Source: Candidatus Heimdallarchaeota archaeon
GTDB lineage: Archaea; Asgardarchaeota; Heimdallarchaeia; Heimdallarchaeales; Heimdallarchaeaceae
Direction of reading: 5' to 3'
Length of the DNA: 27,763 nt
Assembly (NCBI GenBank): GCA_019057375.1
Contig: DXJF01000017.1
Coordinates: 1 to 27,763, forward strand
In this document: piece by piece, positions 3 through 14,406 of the stretch
Layout of the letters: each line of letters begins with the position of its first letter
Numbering within the stretch: position 1 is the first letter of the stretch
Position numbers and translations under genes: made by a program
The notes under the pieces: model-generated
The model's input: the letters and a program-made list of their open reading frames with translations, nothing else
Told to the model about the DNA's origin: nothing
Databases searched by the model: none

Positions 3-134
3 GGCTTAGGAATAGGAATATTAATCGATGTTTTTGTCTCAAGGTTATTTATTGTTCCTCCAGCTATAGTAATAACTTTCAGAGGGGAGAAAACAAAGAA
101 GAAAAAGAGAAGAGGTACTAAAGATGAGAAATAA
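3..134 (+). CDS. 3' end of an MMPL/RND-family transporter (partial, truncated by window edge)
   Basis: The frame from nt 3 reads GLGIGILIDVFVSRLFIVPPAIVITFRGEKTKKKKRRGTKDEK*, resembling the last TM helix of MMPL proteins (G-x-G-I-L-I-D...R-x-x-x-V-P) plus a basic tail. TAA at 132-134 overlaps the next ATG at 124. Confidence 0.6.
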   Translation, partial: GLGIGILIDVFVSRLFIVPPAIVITFRGEKTKKKKRRGTKDEK

Positions 135-1737
135 CAAATTGGTATCAGTTATTTTAGTTTTCATAGTACTTAGTCTTTCTGTCTCAAAAATAGAAGCTGA
201 ACATACTGAAAATTTTCGAGAGATTGGCTTTGAGGACAAAGGATATCTTATCAGTTATAGGATTGCTCAAGGTGAAAATCTAGATAATATGTTTGAAGAG
301 TTAGGTTTTGATTTACAGGGATCATTCTCAAATGGATTACTGAATGTTTTACTGAGGGAAAGGTCTACAGAATTTAGAGACATCTACTATATTGAATCTG
401 ACAAATTCATACAAACTCAGGAAACAGTATATTCTATCGAGAGTTATTTAGTTATCGAGGAACCTCTAACTGTTGAAATTAACACAGGAAGTGAATTTAT
501 AGCAGAGTTCATTGGTTTTAATTTCGAACCAGTAGATTCAGAAATTCTACATGCTGAACTACCCAAGGAAACCGCTATAATTATACCAAAAATCTTCACT
601 AACATAACTAGGCCAAATTTTGGAGCAATGATTAAAAATGCCAATTATTTTGATTTCTTACCTCTAATTATTGGGGAAGATTTTGATAGATATGAAGCTG
701 AATTCGCTTCTTTGCTTCTTGATGAATCTTTTTCAGTCAATATTTACAATAGAGGTGATGAAGAATTTACAATTTCATTAGATATAAAACTAGAAACTTC
801 CATATCGATACGTGCAACTTGGAACAAGTATAGTGGTCTATTAACTGCCCTCTCTGTTCATCTTATACATGGTGGTAGAAGTAGCGTTCTGGTAATCTCA
901 TTAGAAAGCTCTGAAGAGATTCTCTCCCCATTGGATTCTCCTCAGATGCGATTCTTTATTACGAATAGTTCTTCTAGACATGAAATTTATCAATTAAGGA
1001 ATTCTACTAAAGACCAACTAGAGCAGTGGGATCATTGGATTAACCAATTAAATCAAACATATGGTCTAAAATATTTATTTTCCAGATCTGGCTTAAATTT
1101 TCAAAAAACACTTTACGTATATGACAAACTTCTCGATTCTTATTTCTCATCAACGCCAGTTCACGGTTCATGGGTTGCACAGATTCCGCCTATTCTCATA
1201 CCAACATGGGATAAGTATTTAGGAATGACAATACTAGCAGAAAAATTATGGGAACAACTGCATCAAGTGTTTCACGGGTTCCAATTTACACTCACAGGTG
1301 TTACAAGCTCCTTATTTACCATTAGAGAAATAGATTTTCACATTGAGTATCAAAAAAGGGATGATCTTCACCACATCCTGTGGGAGTTTTCATTTGATTA
1401 CCAATCAAATAATACCCAAACTGTTATTCCAAGATTATTTATTCAAGATACAAATGTCTACATGAACGGATGGTTGGCATATACCGAAAGTGGTCAACTT
1501 CAATCATTTTCTCTTGAGTTTCAAGAATTCTATCACTCGTATTATGATCCACCTGAATTAGATTCAGGAAATAATTACTTCTTTGAATACTATATTGAAT
1601 CCATATCAGAAAATACCACTAAACCTGAGTTTGTGAGTATAACTGAAACACCTCATCCATTCCATTTTGAGCAGATAATTTTTTATTGTATTCTTGCTTA
1701 TTCAATTATTAAGAAGAAACGCAAAAGAAGGAACTGA
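124..1737 (+). CDS. Secreted, C-terminally membrane-anchored surface protein with two tandem homologous domains (choice-of-anchor/CTERM-like)
   Basis: N-terminal signal peptide (MRNNKLVSVILVFIVLSLSVSKIEA). C-terminal TPHPF, hydrophobic stretch, then KKKRKRRN. Halves resemble each other: FLPLIIGEDFDRY vs IPPILIPTWDKY, TWNKYSGLLTALS vs AYTESGQLQSFS, ISLESSEE vs YIESISE. Confidence 0.7.
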   Translation: MRNNKLVSVILVFIVLSLSVSKIEAEHTENFREIGFEDKGYLISYRIAQGENLDNMFEELGFDLQGSFSNGLLNVLLRERSTEFRDIYYIESDKFIQTQETVYSIESYLVIEEPLTVEINTGSEFIAEFIGFNFEPVDSEILHAELPKETAIIIPKIFTNITRPNFGAMIKNANYFDFLPLIIGEDFDRYEAEFASLLLDESFSVNIYNRGDEEFTISLDIKLETSISIRATWNKYSGLLTALSVHLIHGGRSSVLVISLESSEEILSPLDSPQMRFFITNSSSRHEIYQLRNSTKDQLEQWDHWINQLNQTYGLKYLFSRSGLNFQKTLYVYDKLLDSYFSSTPVHGSWVAQIPPILIPTWDKYLGMTILAEKLWEQLHQVFHGFQFTLTGVTSSLFTIREIDFHIEYQKRDDLHHILWEFSFDYQSNNTQTVIPRLFIQDTNVYMNGWLAYTESGQLQSFSLEFQEFYHSYYDPPELDSGNNYFFEYYIESISENTTKPEFVSITETPHPFHFEQIIFYCILAYSIIKKKRKRRN

Positions 1738-5360: not shown

Positions 5361-6584
5361 TTAAAGGAGTCTTTTTTCACCTTCAATTTTTCTTATATCA
5401 GTAATATCTTGTGTAACTTCTAGAACGCCCAAGTATTCTCCAGCTTTATTTCTAACAGGGAAATATCGAATAAAAATCAATCTATCTCCTAACTCTAACC
5501 AGAATTCAGCTTTGTCAAGAGTTTTATTTTTGAAGTGTTCAATGATTTTCATCACTTTGTCTACACTTTTAGAAGGATGACAGTTTTCAACTAATCTACC
5601 TATAACACTTGGAGATCGTATAAACACTCTATCAGGACCTTCACTGTAAAATTTCACAACATCATCTTTATCAACAAAAGTCGTATCTACAGGCAGAGTT
5701 TTGAAAATCTGTTGAAGAATTTCCAAATCTAAAATTCCTGTACCTAAATCAACCTGTTTTTCATCAACCATTACAGGTTTAGTTTCCTCATCTATTCTAT
5801 CCTTTTCAGGGACAATATCAGGAGATAAGAAGAAATATCCAATATCATCAAATTGCTTTCTTACTTCAACCCAATCTGAGTCTTTTAGAAGTTTCAAAGC
5901 TGTAGGAAACAAGATTTTGTTTTCTTTTGGAAAATGACTAGCTAACTTCTCTGCTAAACCATGAGCATATAGGTGGAATTTCTCTAGAAAAGTAGGGAAA
6001 TTATGGTCACCTTTGTTTTTAACCAGACTAATCAGATTTTTCTCCAAATCACGAATCCGATCATGTTCTATCCACATTATTTTGGGAGGTTGAGTTACAC
6101 CATATTTTTCTAAGTACGAGAATAGAACATTTTCTTCTCTTAGATAATGATTTTCTGATTTTTGTAAAATATCAACTATATTTGCAATCTCTGTTAATTC
6201 ATTGATAATTGCAGGAAACTTATCTTTCTTGCTGATTTCTTTATAAATGTCTCTCAATCTATTGACATTCTCCAGCAGTATTACATGTTCTTGCATAAGT
6301 ATATGAATCGGATGACCTTCAGGGGCTAAATCCTGCTCTTCTTCGAGTGTTTCTTGTAGAACTGCTAAATGAACATCACACATATGATGAATTTGTTCAG
6401 CAGGCATACCTTCCTTTATAAGCTGTTCCTCAGCTTGAGCAATTTCCAAAGAAGAGAGATTTTTAATAACCTCTTTAAACTCTTCTTTTACCTTTTGAGG
6501 TTCTTCCCCATCATGTAATTTCTTGATGAGTTTCTTAATAGCTTCTTTATTCTTTATAGATTTTTCACTTACTTTCTCATGCAT
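5361..6584 (-). CDS. DUF438 + hemerythrin-like (HHE) + PAS_10 domain protein
   Basis: DUF438 (LHDGEEPQKVKEEF...HMCDVH), HHE motifs (GHPIHILMQEH, NHYLREENVLF, MWIEHD, SHFPKENKILFP) and PAS (DTTFVDKDDVVKFYS...NCHP...YLGVLEVTQDIT). Confidence 0.9.
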   Translation of the reverse strand: MHEKVSEKSIKNKEAIKKLIKKLHDGEEPQKVKEEFKEVIKNLSSLEIAQAEEQLIKEGMPAEQIHHMCDVHLAVLQETLEEEQDLAPEGHPIHILMQEHVILLENVNRLRDIYKEISKKDKFPAIINELTEIANIVDILQKSENHYLREENVLFSYLEKYGVTQPPKIMWIEHDRIRDLEKNLISLVKNKGDHNFPTFLEKFHLYAHGLAEKLASHFPKENKILFPTALKLLKDSDWVEVRKQFDDIGYFFLSPDIVPEKDRIDEETKPVMVDEKQVDLGTGILDLEILQQIFKTLPVDTTFVDKDDVVKFYSEGPDRVFIRSPSVIGRLVENCHPSKSVDKVMKIIEHFKNKTLDKAEFWLELGDRLIFIRYFPVRNKAGEYLGVLEVTQDITDIRKIEGEKRLL

Positions 6585-6795
6585 TTCTAGTCAATCCAAC
6601 GTTTTGAGCATTTTGAGAGAGCCTTATAGCCCCCATATACGAGCTTTTCTTTAACAAACTCTAAATAAATATTTAGTTGGACCCAAACTCATATTTTTCG
6701 AAATCAAACAAGTAGAGATTTTTTATTGGTTGAATAGAAGATTTTAAATGTCAGTAATTGGGCTGAAAAACGAGATTCAAAGGTGGGTTTTTCCT

Positions 6796-7482
6796 ATGTT
6801 TGAAAAAGCTGACAACCCTGATAAAGAAGAAGAATTCATTGAAGTAGATGTAGATAGTGAGCCTGAGGAACAAGTTTCCCAAGAGGAAATAAAGCTCGCT
6901 CCAGAAGAAGTTGAAAAAAATCATTTATCTGTTGAAATACTAAATCTGGTAAATAATAATCAAGTTGACAAATTAACTGAAATAATCTGGACATTAAACC
7001 AAAAATTGAGAGAAGCAAAGATCAAACAAGACGAATTTCTCTATACAGCTCAAAGGGTTCAAGCAGATTTTGAAAATTTCAAAAAGAGAATGCAAAAAGA
7101 TCAAGAATTCTCTAATTTCCGTAATAAAAGTAGTATTTTGCAAAAACTGACAACTGTATATGAAGATTTAGAAAGAACTCTAACAGTTTTAAATGAAAAT
7201 GATGATTTGAAATCTTCTAAAGATGCAATTAAGATGATTTTTAACAATACTAAATCTGCTTTCGAAACTTTAGGAATTAAAGTTATAAATCCGATTGATG
7301 ATATATTTGATCCGAAATATCATGAAGCTCTATATACAGTTGAAGATGCTAAAAAAGACAATAACCAAATAATAGAAGTTGTGTCAAAGGGATTCATGTT
7401 AGAAGGCATTTTACTTAAACCTGCAAGAGTTGTTATTGCTAAACCTCCTCAAAAGAAGAAAGAGGAAGATAATGACAACTAA
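6796..7482 (+). CDS. grpE: Nucleotide exchange factor GrpE
   Basis: QRVQADFENFKKR, FDPKYHEAL and EVVSKGFMLEGILLKPARVVI. ATG 6796 is preceded by AGGTGG and is preferred over 6748. Confidence 0.93.
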   Translation: MFEKADNPDKEEEFIEVDVDSEPEEQVSQEEIKLAPEEVEKNHLSVEILNLVNNNQVDKLTEIIWTLNQKLREAKIKQDEFLYTAQRVQADFENFKKRMQKDQEFSNFRNKSSILQKLTTVYEDLERTLTVLNENDDLKSSKDAIKMIFNNTKSAFETLGIKVINPIDDIFDPKYHEALYTVEDAKKDNNQIIEVVSKGFMLEGILLKPARVVIAKPPQKKKEEDNDN

Positions 7483-7608: not shown

Positions 7609-8649
7609 ATGAGTAAGCTAGGAATAGTATCCTATGGTTCGTATGTCCCTAAATTTCGTATATCTATTGAGGAAATAGCTAAGGTTTGGGATGAAGATCC
7701 GAATGAAATTATCTCACAATTACAGGTTTTTAGTAAATCAGTTCCTGGACCAGATGAAGATGTAGCTACGATGTCTGTTGAAGCAGCAAGAAACACAATA
7801 AGCCGATGGAAAGGGAATCCTCAAGACATAGGTGCAATCTATGTTGGGAGTGAATCTCACCCTTATGCAGTTAAACCTACTGCTACAATTGTTGCTGCAG
7901 CTATAGATGCTGAGAAGGAATTAACTGCTGCAGATTTGGAATTTGCATGTAAAGCTGGAACTGCTGGTATGCAAATGTGTTTTGGATTAGTTAAGTCTGA
8001 GATGATAAAATTCGGATTAGCTATAGGTTCAGATGACAGTCAAGCTAAACCAAGAGATCCTCTAGAATATACAACTGGAGCTGGAAGTGCAGCTTTTCTA
8101 ATTGGTAAGGAGAGAGTTGTTGCAGAGCTAGAGGGGACGTATTCAATCACTACAGATACCCCAGACTTTTGGAGAAGAGAAGGGGCGGTATTTCCTTCTC
8201 ATGGGAACAGATTTACAGGACAACCTGCATACTTTCAACATATTGTTGATGCTTCCAAAGGATTAATGGAAGAACTTGGAACCAAACCTTCAGATTATAA
8301 GTATGTTACATTTCATCAACCTAATACGAAATTTCCACTCACGGTTGCAAAAATGCTTGGCTTTACAACTGACCAAATCGACATTAGTTTAATCTGCAAA
8401 AACATTGGAAATACATATTCCGCTTCATCGATGCTTGGATTAGCACATATTCTTAATAATTCCAATCCAGGAGACAAAATATTTATGACTTCATATGGCA
8501 GTGGCGCTGGAAGTGATGCGTTTTCATTTTCAATAACTGACGAGATTGAAGCTCTCAAATTATATCCACTAACAGTTGAACATTATGTGAACAACAAGGA
8601 AGAAATTAACTATGGTAAATATTCTAGATACAAGGGGATTCTGAGGTGA
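7609..8649 (+). CDS. hmgS: Hydroxymethylglutaryl-CoA synthase (archaeal type)
   Basis: GIVSYGSYVPKFRI, GSESHPYAVKP (catalytic Glu), EFACKAG (Cys), FHQPN (His), GNTYSASS and SYGSGAGSD. ATG 7609 is preferred over 7522. Confidence 0.95.
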   Translation: MSKLGIVSYGSYVPKFRISIEEIAKVWDEDPNEIISQLQVFSKSVPGPDEDVATMSVEAARNTISRWKGNPQDIGAIYVGSESHPYAVKPTATIVAAAIDAEKELTAADLEFACKAGTAGMQMCFGLVKSEMIKFGLAIGSDDSQAKPRDPLEYTTGAGSAAFLIGKERVVAELEGTYSITTDTPDFWRREGAVFPSHGNRFTGQPAYFQHIVDASKGLMEELGTKPSDYKYVTFHQPNTKFPLTVAKMLGFTTDQIDISLICKNIGNTYSASSMLGLAHILNNSNPGDKIFMTSYGSGAGSDAFSFSITDEIEALKLYPLTVEHYVNNKEEINYGKYSRYKGILR

Positions 8650-8653
8650 TAAT

Positions 8654-9835
8654 ATGAGTAAAAGAGAAGTTTATGTTATAGGATATGGTATAACTAAATT
8701 TGGTGAGCACTATGAATTGAATCCTAGTACCAATGCATCGCAAGCTCTATCTAAAGCTATTCAGGATGCAAAGATTAACAAAGATCAGATTCAGAGTCTA
8801 TATTTTGGGTCATTGGTTTCAAATAGGAATAGCCAATCTTACATTGGAGCAGAAGCTACTCGAGAATGTAATTTAAACATACCAGTTACTAAAATTGATG
8901 TAGGAAATGCAAGTGGTGCAGGAGCATTTCATCAAGCATTCTTAGCTATAAAAAGTGGTCTTCTAGACTGTATCGCAGTATTAGGCACAGAAAAATTAAG
9001 TGATTTTGTTAATAGTAGTACAATAGAAAAAATTCTTGGAGGTACATTAGATTATCAATGGGAATTTGAGCAAGGAGCTACAGTAACAAGTCTCTATGCT
9101 TGGATGACACAAGCTCATATGAAAGAGTTCAATACAACCATGGAACAATTAGCATCAGTTCCAGTCAAAAACCATGCCAATGGAGTGAATAATCCAATCG
9201 CTCAATTCAGACGTGAAATCTCATTAAAACGATTTCTGGATGCAAAGAGAATTTCAGATCCCATTGGAAGATTTGATCCTGCAACTTATTGTGATGGAAG
9301 CGCAGCAGTGGTAATAGCTTCCAAGGAATTTGTGGAAAACCACTCAGAAATAGAAAAAAAGGTTAAAGTGATTAGTTCTGCCCAAAGCTCAGATAAAATT
9401 GCACTACACCATAGGGAAACCTTATCATCACTTCTAGCAACTCAAATTGCCTCAAAAAAAGCTTATGAAATGGCTCAAATTTCGTCGAAGGATATCAGTA
9501 TTGCTGAAGTACATGATTCATATCCTATAGGAGAGATTCTAGCAATAGAAAATCTTGGATTCTTCCAAAAAGGAGATGGGGGCGGAGCTACAATTGAAGG
9601 AAAAACTCAGATTAACTCAGAAATTAGTGTAAATACCAGCGGAGGTCTCAAGGCTAGAGGGGATCCTTTCGGTGCAACAGGAATTGCTCAAATTATCGAA
9701 ATCGTCCAACAAATGAGAAGAGAAGCTGACCAGAGACAAGTTGATGATATTAAGTATGGACTAACACAGAATGTTATGGGAACAGGAGCAAGTGTTTTAA
9801 TAAATATATTTTCAAATATGGAGGACGATAAATAA
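8654..9835 (+). CDS. SCP2/archaeal-type thiolase-fold protein with substituted catalytic residues
   Basis: Thiolase motifs DGSAAVVI, AEVHD and NTSGGLKARG-PFGATG. However GNASG (N85) replaces xCASG, HDSY replaces HDCF and GDP replaces GHP. RBS GAGGTGA overlaps the HMGS stop. Confidence 0.9.
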   Translation: MSKREVYVIGYGITKFGEHYELNPSTNASQALSKAIQDAKINKDQIQSLYFGSLVSNRNSQSYIGAEATRECNLNIPVTKIDVGNASGAGAFHQAFLAIKSGLLDCIAVLGTEKLSDFVNSSTIEKILGGTLDYQWEFEQGATVTSLYAWMTQAHMKEFNTTMEQLASVPVKNHANGVNNPIAQFRREISLKRFLDAKRISDPIGRFDPATYCDGSAAVVIASKEFVENHSEIEKKVKVISSAQSSDKIALHHRETLSSLLATQIASKKAYEMAQISSKDISIAEVHDSYPIGEILAIENLGFFQKGDGGGATIEGKTQINSEISVNTSGGLKARGDPFGATGIAQIIEIVQQMRREADQRQVDDIKYGLTQNVMGTGASVLINIFSNMEDDK

Positions 9836-10224
9836 TGGAACCACCCAAAATATGGAGAGAAAGAAGAGAAAAATATCTAGCTTTGGGAATCTTATGTCAT
9901 GAATGTAAAAAGAAGAGCTTTCCAATCACTCAATATTGTCCTTACTGTTCCAGTGAAAATATTGTAGAATTAAAACTTGCACAAACAGGGAAAATTCTTC
10001 ACTTCACGAGAGTATCTCAAACTGCAGAAGAAATGATGTTTTATGCTCCATATATAATTGGTCTTGTAGAATTAGATGATGGCATTAAGGTAACTGGACA
10101 AATTACTGATAATAAACTTGAGAAGCTTTCAGAAGGAACGAAAGTCCGAATGGTTTTTAGAGTATTATCAAAAAATGGAGAAGAAGGATTAATAGGATAC
10201 GGGTTTAAGTTCGTACCTATCTAA
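9835..10224 (+). CDS. DUF35 Zn-ribbon/OB-fold protein (scaffold subunit of the thiolase/HMGS complex)
   Basis: CHEC...CPYC zinc ribbon, GKILHFT and PYIIGLVELDDG. TAATG overlap indicates translational coupling. Confidence 0.92.
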   Translation: MEPPKIWRERREKYLALGILCHECKKKSFPITQYCPYCSSENIVELKLAQTGKILHFTRVSQTAEEMMFYAPYIIGLVELDDGIKVTGQITDNKLEKLSEGTKVRMVFRVLSKNGEEGLIGYGFKFVPI

Positions 10225-11595
10225 TTATTGTTTTATATGAGTAAATGAGTGTGTAATCAATCCTATTGATTGGATTTGCTTTTTAGCATTATCAACTTCA
10301 TGGGCATATTGTTGATCTCCACCAACAAAGAAACCATGAACTCCACCTTGGAACTTGTCCTTAACTATTACAAAGCCTAAACCACACCCACTTCTTTTAT
10401 AATCACAATAAACTACATACGAATTTTCTTTTGTTAGTTGGAGTTCAAGATGAAGGTGTGGAACAACATAATCTGGAATCTGATGTATAATGTTAGTGTT
10501 AGAACAGAAAGGACACTTTGATGAATAGAAATTCTTTAACCTCTTCTTTGCCTCATTGAATACATTAGTAAACCAATATCCAGAGGATGTTTTCAACAGT
10601 TCACCAAGTTCAAGATTTGCGATTGGACTTAATTGTGGAAGGGCAGATAGTTCTTCTACAGAAGCAACCTCTAGAAGCAACTTAAAACCCTTGGTTGTCG
10701 TCTTTATGACTATTGGATGTTCAAAATGATCCTCTACAAATTTGTTATCTTTAGGAACATAAGGATTCATGTAACTTTTATCCTTATCAATTATTGAAAT
10801 ATTGAAGAATATAGCTTTAACTGTAGTTGGGAACTTATCTATTTTTGTCCCAAAATGATAAACTGCAAAGTCCATAAGTTTGGGATGAACATTGTCATCT
10901 GGTTCATCCACAACAAAAATCATCATTTGATCATTTTGAGTAAGAGTTAGAGCTAATGGTGGAAGAGTAGGTTTATCTAAATGGACAGATTTCATTATTC
11001 CAATTCTTCTAGATGCTAATACTTCTTCTATTTCAGTTATTGCTTGCTTGATATGGATCTCTGGTTCATGTTCGATTGGTTCTGAAACTTTATATCCTTG
11101 ATCCATTAACGATAGTTTAAAATCCTCATTCCAGAATTCCTTTAGCCACTCCCAAGGAAGATAAACTACGTTCTTCTTCTTATACCATGTCTTAGATTCT
11201 CTGGCATCCCCATCAAAATAATAGTAAAGCGGATGATTTCTAGAAGATTTTTCCATTATAATAACAGGAACAGCTTTCATTCCTTTGTATTTATCACAAT
11301 AAACTGGATCCATGCCTGAATTTAAAGATAAAACACAGCTTAATAGCTTTAGAGCTGGTTCCTGAAGCTTAGCTTCAATTTGCTCATCTGTTCCCTTAAA
11401 TGGATCTGATGCTTCTCCACTTCTTGCGCGAATAGTTAGGAGTAAATCATCTTTGTAAGCACACATGATTACTCGTTTGTAGCTTTCATAGAAATCAACG
11501 TTTCTTGTGTAAATATTACACATCTCTACTGTAAAGCCTTTGTCTTTAAGATATGCTTCAACGAGCTTCATAAAATTTGTTTTAAATAAGCTCAT
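10225..11595 (-). CDS. Hypothetical protein, possible degenerate restriction-endonuclease-like fold with C-terminal Zn ribbon
   Basis: 456-codon ORF. N-terminal LVEAYLKDKGFTVE..VD resembles the start of PD-(D/E)xK folds, but no clear catalytic E-x-K is visible. C-terminal CPFC...CDYKRSGC. Confidence 0.55.
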   Translation of the reverse strand: MSLFKTNFMKLVEAYLKDKGFTVEMCNIYTRNVDFYESYKRVIMCAYKDDLLLTIRARSGEASDPFKGTDEQIEAKLQEPALKLLSCVLSLNSGMDPVYCDKYKGMKAVPVIIMEKSSRNHPLYYYFDGDARESKTWYKKKNVVYLPWEWLKEFWNEDFKLSLMDQGYKVSEPIEHEPEIHIKQAITEIEEVLASRRIGIMKSVHLDKPTLPPLALTLTQNDQMMIFVVDEPDDNVHPKLMDFAVYHFGTKIDKFPTTVKAIFFNISIIDKDKSYMNPYVPKDNKFVEDHFEHPIVIKTTTKGFKLLLEVASVEELSALPQLSPIANLELGELLKTSSGYWFTNVFNEAKKRLKNFYSSKCPFCSNTNIIHQIPDYVVPHLHLELQLTKENSYVVYCDYKRSGCGLGFVIVKDKFQGGVHGFFVGGDQQYAHEVDNAKKQIQSIGLITHSFTHIKQ

Positions 11596-12891: not shown

Positions 12892-14406
12892 ATGATGGAA
12901 AATATATTTAAAAGGTACAAAGAAATTCTCTTTTTTGGTTTTTCTCTTGTGCTTATATCATTGGGATTGGGGATTTGGTGAACTATTAATGAAGCTACAA
13001 TACAAGGTACAGTAGTAGAGATAGTATTGAAAAGATTCTTAGAAATAATCCCACTATTAGGTTTAGGGTTTCTGAAACTAGGAATTGGTTTTGCTATTGT
13101 AACCATAGTGAAAAGTATTAAATCTACAGGTGAAAATGCAACTGGAAGCTTCAAGAAAGCAGGCTTAAAATTAGAAAACAATAAAGCACCATTCTTTGCT
13201 AAGAGTTTCCCAATTATGCTAATTGCAGGAATACTCTCTGAATTAGTTGCAGCAATTATAATGATATTTTGGATAATAGCTGGTGTTAATGGTAATGAAT
13301 ATGCAAATCATATATATGAAATAATTACTGTTCCAATCGAAGGATTGGGTGTTGCTTTGCTGATAGGAGGCATAGCTTTTGGTTTAACCACCATAGTGCT
13401 CAATTTGGGTATTCAAGTTAATGAATTACCCAAAAGACTGAAAGCATTGGTTAAAGGAGAAAAAGATCTAGAAGAATTACAACCTAAAAGTCTCATTCCA
13501 AGATGGACAAAGATTGTTACAATTACAGGTATGATTGTCACAGGATCTGCATTAATACCTGTTGCAATAATTAGAGCAGTTCACTATGCAGTTAACTATT
13601 CACCAACATATGAAACACCAGTTGGTTTGAATGCTTTACTCTGGGATACATGGATCTTTTTAGGGATAGCAATATTACTATTTGCAATAAGTTATTGGTT
13701 ATTAAGAATTATAAAGTGGTTGAGAAGACAAAGAACTCAATTAGGAAAAACTGTTGAAGAAATAGCTGAAATGGAAGTTCCTACAATAGAAAATCCTTTG
13801 AAAATCACAACAGCAGTACATTCATTTGCTACTGCAGGATTAATGTGGATGTTTATTTTCTTCTTTGTAATTGCAATCTATCAAGCTTTTCAGGAAACTT
13901 TGCTAGGGGTTGTTACTCTAAAAATGCTTATTAAACCTGGCAGAGCGATTAGTTTGGCTTTGCTTTTCATAGGAATAGGACTTGCTTTGTTAACCATAGT
14001 AGTTAATCTGAATCTCACAGCTTTTATGTTACCGAGCTCCTTTTCGAATATCGTAAATGCAATTAAGAAAGATAATACAAGAGTAGAGCTCTCTCAAGCT
14101 TCTGACAAACCCCTAAAACTATCACCTATGAAATTATTCATAGGCTTACTAATTGGCGCATTTATAGTTCTCTTAGGAACAATACCACTTGCCATTCTAA
14201 GAATAAGTTACCAGTTTCAAGGACTTACACAGAGTCAGTTAACTGTCGAACATCTTATTGGTCCAGTTGTGTCTACAGGAGTTGGCTTAATTTTCTTAAT
14301 GATTGGTTTATTCTTCAGCACCATTGTGGGTTTTGTTAAAGCAAGAAAAACAATAATTAGTGAGGGTGTTGAAAGCTGCGTTTATTACACTATTGAGAAG
14401 AAGTAA
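12892..14406 (+). CDS. Multi-pass membrane protein with 4-5 internal repeats, interrupted by one in-frame TGA (12979-12981)
   Basis: MMENIFKRYKEILFFGFSLVLISLGLGIW*TINEATIQGTVVEIVLKRFLE is in frame with the track ORF 13027-14406. Repeat motif G-x-A-L-L-x-x-G-I-G/A-x-x-L-x-T-I-V. RBS-like AGGATGA precedes 12892. It may be a pseudogene or may start at TTG 13027. Confidence 0.65.

Follow-up and report, generated by a model that had tools for sequence, protein, structure and literature searches.

A thiolase-fold protein lacking thiolase catalytic residues in the HMGS operon of a Heimdallarchaeaceae genome

We analysed a window of 27,763 nucleotides from Candidatus Heimdallarchaeota archaeon (family Heimdallarchaeaceae), which comprises positions 1 to 27,763 of the forward strand of contig DXJF01000017.1 in assembly GCA_019057375.1. 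The window contains three adjacent and co-oriented genes encoding an archaeal-type 3-hydroxy-3-methylglutaryl-CoA (HMG-CoA) synthase (HMGS), a thiolase-like protein and a DUF35 protein, in the gene order of the complex in PDB entry 6ESQ. This report concerns the middle gene, whose product has a predicted thiolase fold without the thiolase catalytic residues and is called the pseudo-thiolase below. Coordinates without a contig prefix refer to the window.

Results

Active-site residues of the pseudo-thiolase and its operon partners

The pseudo-thiolase gene is translated without stops into 393 amino acids (aa), and its product is the positional orthologue of the thiolase subunit in the archaeal thiolase/HMGS/DUF35 complex. 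It contains the Pfam domains Thiolase_N and Thiolase_C_1. Its NCBIfam scores are 406 bits for the archaeal thiolase subfamily (NF053570 and PRK06064 were tested), just below the cut-off of 420, and 362 for the Methanothermococcus thermolithotrophicus equivalog, far below the membership cut-off of 600. Motifs were placed by HMMER alignment to the thiolases of M. thermolithotrophicus (6esq_A) and Pyrococcus furiosus (7yvy_A). Translation and alignment confirmed the three substituted motifs, GNASG (N85), HDSY (S289) and GDP (D337), that a first-pass annotation of this DNA had pointed out (Table 1). A fourth active-site loop, which that annotation had not described, is altered as well, with H372 and G375 of intact thiolases replaced by Q and M.

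The pseudo-thiolase thus has neither the Cys nucleophile nor the GHP His of an acetyl-CoA acetyltransferase, and no new Cys or His was seen in any of the four active-site loops. The thiolase of P. furiosus has HDAF, with Ala in place of the HDCF Cys; since this Cys is not universal among Cys-bearing archaeal thiolases, S289 alone is not diagnostic. What is decisive is that the nucleophile and the GHP His are gone.

The HMGS scores 526 bits against NF003274 (cut-off 244) and 428 bits against 6esq_I, and it keeps not only the Glu, Cys and His noted in the first-pass annotation but also the Asn (motifs SESHPY, EFACKAG, FHQPN and GNTYS). The DUF35 protein matches the Pfam domain OB_ChsH2_C (PF01796) and scores 87 bits against 6esq_E, with both Cys pairs aligned. 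The HMGS stop codon (TGA, 8647-8649) is followed after a 4-nucleotide gap by the pseudo-thiolase ATG at 8654, which has GAGGTGA upstream, and the stop of the pseudo-thiolase gene and the start of the DUF35 gene share TAATG at 9833-9837, preceded by GGAGGA. The reading frame, ribosome-binding sites and TAATG coupling are preserved, as had been described. HMG-CoA reductase is also present in this genome.

Table 1. Coordinates of the pseudo-thiolase, its altered motifs, its operon partners and the syntenic block discussed in the text
Feature	Position	Strand	Basis or remark
Pseudo-thiolase (thiolase fold without thiolase catalytic residues)	8654-9835	+	Pfam, NCBIfam, HMMER, AlphaFold model, dN/dS
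Codon AAT, Asn85	8906-8908	+	Aligned with the nucleophile Cys85; GNASG replaces ACASG (context DVGNASG)
H287-D288-S289-Y290	9512-9523	+	Replaces HDCF; His-Asp pair retained, acid/base Cys to Ser, Phe to Tyr
G336-D337-P338	9659-9667	+	Replaces GHP; oxyanion-hole His to Asp, invariant across the genus
Fourth active-site loop, Q372-N-V-M375	9767-9778	+	Mostly H-N-x-G in catalytically intact thiolases
Archaeal-type HMGS, 346 aa	7609-8649	+	Probable ATG start at 7609; the mechanical open reading frame begins at TTG 7522
DUF35 scaffold protein, stand-alone, 129 aa	9835-10224	+	Zn ribbon CxxC...CxxC plus OB fold
9-kb block at the PIN-Trm5 site (elsewhere in the genome)	C102:18765-27695 (locus L210:2266-11196)		Synteny between PIN-aIF2gamma and Trm5

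Conservation, selection and predicted fold

One orthologue was found in each of 22 genomes of the same genus (61-93% identity), and all 22 are in the substituted state, with [N/T]ASG, HD[S/A][Y/F] and GDP. The 62 closest database homologues are in the same state, save for single-residue variants at one motif or another. Among close members of the genus, the pairwise ratio of nonsynonymous to synonymous substitution rates (dN/dS) is 0.08-0.14 for the pseudo-thiolase, compared with 0.055-0.11 for HMGS and 0.09-0.18 for DUF35; by this measure the pseudo-thiolase appears to be under purifying selection as strong as that on its two partners. Sequencing error and a pseudogene are ruled out, because orthologues share the substitutions and dN/dS is about 0.1. 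The first-pass annotation had likewise argued against sequencing error, and the dN/dS check that it proposed returned purifying selection. Its suggestion of a selected pseudoenzyme or scaffold gains support from the orthologue conservation and dN/dS, the inactivity itself being judged from sequence.

Of the columns that are at least 90% conserved in intact HMGS-linked thiolases, the genus retains 52%, while the value for HMGS in the same genomes is 75%. Constraint on the pseudo-thiolase appears to have shifted or relaxed relative to the intact thiolases. Structure prediction indicates an unchanged fold: the AlphaFold monomer model (mean predicted local distance difference test score, pLDDT, 92.7) overlays chain A of 6ESQ with a TM-score of 0.94 and a root-mean-square deviation of 1.6 Å.

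Search for another thiolase

Searches of this genome with the protein, PF00108 and PF22691 found no other thiolase. The sole Thiolase_N/Thiolase_C_1 match is the pseudo-thiolase, and the remaining weak thiolase-profile matches are ketosynthase (KS) domains of a 3385-aa megasynthase. Across the family, PF00108 recovered only the cysteine-less gene from 29 genomes of four genera (g1, g10, g11 and g12), besides weak hits to the megasynthase ketosynthases. An extra intact thiolase (DACASG, HDCF, GHP) occurs in the family only in two closed genomes of genus g13, where it has its own DUF35 and sits between Trm5 and PIN-aIF2gamma. In this genome, the syntenic PIN-Trm5 site lies on an unbroken contig without the intact pair. 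It holds a 9-kb block of genes for an HD-domain protein, an isocitrate/isopropylmalate dehydrogenase, three aconitase-family proteins and a two-subunit ATP-citrate lyase. The first-pass annotation had expected acetoacetyl-CoA to come from a paralogue or from catabolism; a paralogue is excluded for this genome and its genus, where no other thiolase was found, and catabolism or an unknown route remains.

The megasynthase (C147:14039-26511; locus L048:2039-14512) is of the type-I fatty-acid/polyketide type, with enoyl reductase, KS, AT, second KS-like, ACP, KR, DH and PPTase domains. Its gene is preceded by one for a carboxyltransferase and followed by one for an alpha/beta hydrolase, and the KS-AT part is found in 41 of the 47 genomes of the order. 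As a replacement for the thiolase it was ruled out, since it occurs order-wide, including in genomes with intact thiolases.

Distribution and history of cysteine-less thiolases

We surveyed the class by anchoring on HMGS and then reading the adjoining gene. The HMGS-linked thiolase is cysteine-less in all five genera of Heimdallarchaeaceae, with [N/T]ASG, HDS[Y/F/H] and GDP (a few genus orthologues have HDA[Y/F]). It is also cysteine-less in family f4, with E at the nucleophile position, HDS[Y/F] and GYP; in family f3, with G, E or D, HDIF (one HDVL) and G[A/Y/H]P; and in one genome of family f6, with D and HDSF. Family f7, which belongs to another order, has an intact HMGS-linked thiolase (CASG, HDCF, GHP).

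IQ-TREE (LG+C20) recovered a single cysteine-less clade for families f1, f3 and f4 (SH-aLRT 97) and grouped the intact paralogues of f3, f4 and genus g13 in one clade of their own (SH-aLRT 99). The tree was only midpoint-rooted, and the word clade holds if the true root falls outside each group; in a FastTree run, the grouping of the f1 with the f3 branch was marked as possibly due to a long-branch artefact. On these trees, the simplest history would be that the catalytic residues were lost once, close to the root of the order, while a separate thiolase-DUF35 pair performed the chemistry. The thiolase reaction would first have been taken over by this intact pair, which persists in two sister families and in genus g13 of this family. 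The pair would then have been lost in most genera of the family, this genome included.

The Cys is likewise missing from HMGS-linked thiolases of Thermoplasmata and Methanomassiliicoccales, some of which show the same HDSY and GDP, whereas those of methanogens retain the canonical residues. In our trees the cysteine-less clade of Thermoplasmata and Methanomassiliicoccales is sister to intact Thermoplasmatota thiolases, and Thermoplasmata appear to have lost the catalytic residues independently of the Heimdall order. A single origin shared through gene transfer was rejected, because the trees separate the two cysteine-less clades. All five Thermoplasmata genomes tested encode a classical thiolase II, with PF00108 scores of 271-322 bits. 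Its motifs CxSG, NEAF, GHP and CxGGG, searched as exact patterns, all occur in two of the five best copies, and each of the other three misses one.

Three further observations were made in the course of this survey. The convergence on HDSY and GDP in an independently Cys-less clade is seen at loci L049 and P0064 (Methanomassiliicoccus/Methanomassiliicoccales). The closed genome G050 carries the pair of HMGS and cysteine-less thiolase twice, about 4.2 kb apart and with identical scores (C1:1296097-1301888), which looks like a recent tandem duplication. Finally, 19 of the 22 large genomes of family f5, genus g14 (most of 3-6 Mb) have no archaeal-type HMGS match at E<=1e-40, and the other three have weak matches of 31-45% identity; these genomes may use another type of HMGS.

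Other genes in the window

Three long open reading frames have no Pfam match, at 124-1737(+), 10225-11595(-) and 13027-14406(+), encoding 537, 456 and 459 aa, respectively; the second of them abuts the DUF35 stop from the opposite strand. A protein with DUF438, hemerythrin and PAS domains, probably a sensor of O2/NO or iron, is encoded at 5361-6584(-). Its gene is situated upstream of, and points away from, the GrpE gene (6748-7482).

Discussion

A proposed non-catalytic subunit and a candidate source of acetoacetyl-CoA

The best explanation overall, in which we place moderate confidence, is that the pseudo-thiolase is a non-catalytic, thiolase-fold subunit of the HMGS/thiolase/DUF35 complex and that acetoacetyl-CoA is supplied by a thiolase-independent route. 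Published work describes CoA in 6ESQ as bound at an interface of residues from all three proteins (PMC6392133), the CoA site as shared and archaeal HMGCS as 50-100 residues shorter than other HMGS, which include the bacterial and eukaryotic enzymes (PMC11522927), and archaeal HMGS as inactive alone and the thiolase as insoluble alone (PMC12960953, citing Vogeli 2018). Given a CoA site common to all three proteins and an archaeal HMGS that is reportedly inactive by itself, we read the pseudo-thiolase as an obligatory architectural, CoA-holding subunit. It would continue to bind DUF35 and HMGS and, for HMGS, keep the CoA moiety of acetyl- or acetoacetyl-CoA in place, and it would have been kept because the still-intact HMGS cannot work without it. 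The residues that replace the catalytic ones vary by family (N/T, E, G or D for the nucleophile; D, Y, A or H at the GHP His position), and since they differ, loss of catalysis is a better account than one new catalytic set. Compensating changes in the HMGS of thiolase-free genera were also sought and rejected: the three signature substitutions, I55M, G160S and V263C, are found throughout the family, the genus with the intact paralogue included.

We assume a thiolase-independent origin of acetoacetyl-CoA because no intact thiolase was found in this genome. In the likeliest route, a short acyl-CoA (butyryl- or glutaryl-CoA, from the breakdown of amino acids or short-chain acids) would be oxidised to acetoacetyl-CoA by a single-copy acyl-CoA dehydrogenase, crotonase and 3-hydroxybutyryl-CoA dehydrogenase. 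The steps would run from butyryl- or glutaryl-CoA through crotonyl-CoA and 3-hydroxybutyryl-CoA to acetoacetyl-CoA, which would pass to HMGS and then to HMG-CoA reductase. The oxidative direction is coherent because there is no thiolase to feed or drain acetoacetyl-CoA. Our confidence in this candidate route is moderate to low. The genome encodes a 3-hydroxybutyryl-CoA dehydrogenase, a short-chain crotonase and an acyl-CoA dehydrogenase exactly once each. Both the 3-hydroxybutyryl-CoA dehydrogenase and the crotonase occur in 25 of 25 genomes of the genus, in single copy save for one extra crotonase fragment in one genome. The acyl-CoA dehydrogenase, at C128:19143-20396(-), shows 87-98% identity within the genus and 80% to that of another genus; this conservation, far above that of HMGS or the thiolase-like gene, suggests a central role. 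Among NCBIfam families it comes closest to glutaryl-CoA dehydrogenase and acryloyl-CoA reductase, without reaching the cut-off of either.

An NphT7/KAS III-type acetoacetyl-CoA synthase was considered as another source and rejected: PF08541 matched HMGS only, and two weak matches proved to be a PLP enzyme and a Zn-dehydrogenase. To judge from its title, a 1986 paper by Ekiel and co-workers (J Bacteriol 166:559) offers a precedent for archaeal mevalonate carbon that stems from amino acids. The single crotonase gene is immediately preceded, on the same strand, by genes for hydantoinase/oxoprolinase A and B (C65:61098-64750(-)); the hydantoinase/oxoprolinase family also includes acetone carboxylases.

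Several points weigh against this overall explanation. Both the catalytic inactivity and the scaffold role are deduced, the former from missing residues. N/T85, S289 and D337 are near-invariant within the family and the His-Asp pair is always kept, while HDSY together with GDP recurs independently in a Methanomassiliicoccus; either observation might stem from a remaining role in ligand binding or catalysis. The three candidate genes of the oxidative route are scattered and unlinked to the HMGS operon, and genome searches found no family-I CoA-transferase, acetoacetyl-CoA synthetase or 4-hydroxybutyryl-CoA dehydratase. Finally, this genome is 89% complete, in 159 contigs.

Alternative explanations

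The same conserved residues, with Y290 among them and His287-Asp288 always kept, and their independent reappearance as HDSY and GDP speak for a neo-functionalised protein that still catalyses a reaction in the complex through other residues. Malonyl-CoA decarboxylation, a decarboxylative Claisen condensation giving acetoacetyl-CoA, or an aldol-type reaction can be imagined, by analogy with KS-Q domains and TbSLP. No other source of Claisen condensation towards CoA esters was found in the genome, malonyl-CoA is probably available (the carboxyltransferase gene adjoins that of the megasynthase), and the thiolase-fold TbSLP has weak malonyl-CoA decarboxylase activity, with a kcat of 0.005 s-1 as cited in PMC12329534. 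We nevertheless consider a new activity unlikely, since the order as a whole shows no shared catalytic constellation, with unrelated residues replacing the nucleophile (G, E, D, N, T) and the GHP His (A, Y, H, D), and since the four active-site loops have gained no Cys or His. Thermoplasmata with near-identical motifs moreover carry a classical thiolase, which fits simple loss. An aldolase is ruled out on the motif: its signature has Tyr first (YDHF/YDCY), and the first residue of HDSY is His. The first-pass proposal that the Tyr/Asp of HDSY might support new chemistry is for this reason not supported, as the signature Tyr of Ltp2 and Sal occupies that first position. A further reading would be that most Heimdallarchaeaceae begin the mevalonate pathway without any thiolase and that the remodelled HMGS/pseudo-thiolase/DUF35 complex itself forms the C4 unit by a so far undescribed chemistry, for example a malonyl-CoA-dependent or an HMGS-Cys-based Claisen condensation. 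We regard this as improbable; if true, close archaeal relatives of eukaryotes would enter isoprenoid synthesis in a new way.

The protein might instead still be a thiolase with its nucleophile elsewhere, for example at Cys106 or Cys213, which are conserved in 100% and 96% of the genus, respectively, and not in intact archaeal thiolases. This is very improbable, given that intact thiolases have Ser, Thr or Cys at position 213 and cysteine-less Thermoplasmata have Ser there, that position 106 falls within a predicted core strand, that sister families of the same clade have neither Cys, and that the oxyanion-hole His and acid/base Cys are missing too. It is also conceivable that an intact thiolase exists and was missed, in incomplete metagenome bins or on unbinned DNA. 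In keeping with this, the genome is fragmented as stated above and those of the genus are all draft bins of 72-92% completeness. Incompleteness would have to delete the same gene from each of the 29 genomes in four genera, and the site that holds the intact pair in the sister genus is here on one contig and occupied by other genes. Because the 29 genomes agree and the syntenic site is contiguous with other genes in it, incompleteness is unlikely to explain the missing thiolase, and we give a missed gene hardly any credence.

Significance

Full-text literature searches found no report of a cysteine-less HMGS-linked thiolase or of the way in which these lineages enter the mevalonate pathway. The ability of archaea to drive the unfavourable first step towards isoprenoid lipids is, by the standard account, explained by the thiolase/HMGS/DUF35 complex. 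If the pseudo-thiolase is a non-catalytic subunit, the thiolase half of this complex would be dead and yet retained across an order of Heimdallarchaeia and in many Thermoplasmata, and the channelling model would not apply there. The label 'acetyl-CoA C-acetyltransferase' on these proteins is probably wrong, which affects metabolic reconstructions. Since most Heimdallarchaeaceae have intact HMGS and HMG-CoA reductase and no intact thiolase was found in them, the origin of their acetoacetyl-CoA becomes a testable question. This group is central to the debates on the lipid divide and eukaryogenesis, and what is affected is the opening step of mevalonate-based membrane-lipid synthesis in these relatives of eukaryotes. 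Were the scaffold role true, the operon would give a clear natural example of a pseudoenzyme retained as an indispensable partner, with the roles of PhlABC and MucABC reversed.

Comparison with known systems

The 6ESQ complex shares the gene trio and its order with the operon described here, and the predicted pseudo-thiolase monomer overlays its chain A closely, as given above. In contrast to 6ESQ, the thiolase subunit here and its orthologues have no Cys85, HDCF Cys or GHP His. With these catalytic residues gone, the complex would be unable to couple the thiolase reaction to HMGS as 6ESQ does.

The same three-protein architecture is described (PMC6392133, PMC12960953) for the Friedel-Crafts acyltransferases PhlABC (PpATase) and MucABC (SmaATase) and for the ACAT/HMGS-DUF35 complex of Pseudomonas fluorescens. 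In PhlABC and MucABC, as we propose here, one thiolase-fold subunit is a non-catalytic partner that is required for an active assembly. There, however, the HMGS-like subunit is dead and the thiolase-like subunit keeps its Cys, whereas here the roles are reversed and the HMGS tetrad is kept; the pathway is antibiotic synthesis in the former and primary isoprenoid synthesis in the latter. The 'mirror image of PhlABC' of the first-pass annotation thus holds on the published structures.

The proteins of Thermoplasmata and Methanomassiliicoccales are likewise HMGS-linked and have lost the same three catalytic positions, sometimes with identical HDSY and GDP. They form an independent clade, and the five genomes checked hold a thiolase II, in contrast to this genome, where none was found.

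TbSLP (YDCF), Ltp2-ChsH2(DUF35) and Sal-Shy(DUF35) (PDB 5AB4-7, 6OK1 and 9MYR) share the SCP2-thiolase fold and altered catalytic residues with the pseudo-thiolase, at an identity of only 20-21%, and the Ltp2 and Sal retro-aldolases also have a DUF35 partner. Their catalytic Tyr stands first in the YD(H/C)(F/Y) motif, according to PMC12329534, whereas His stands first in HDSY here. The DUF35 of the aldolases forms the C-terminal domain of a hydratase (ChsH2 or Shy), while in the operon described here it is a stand-alone protein encoded beside HMGS.

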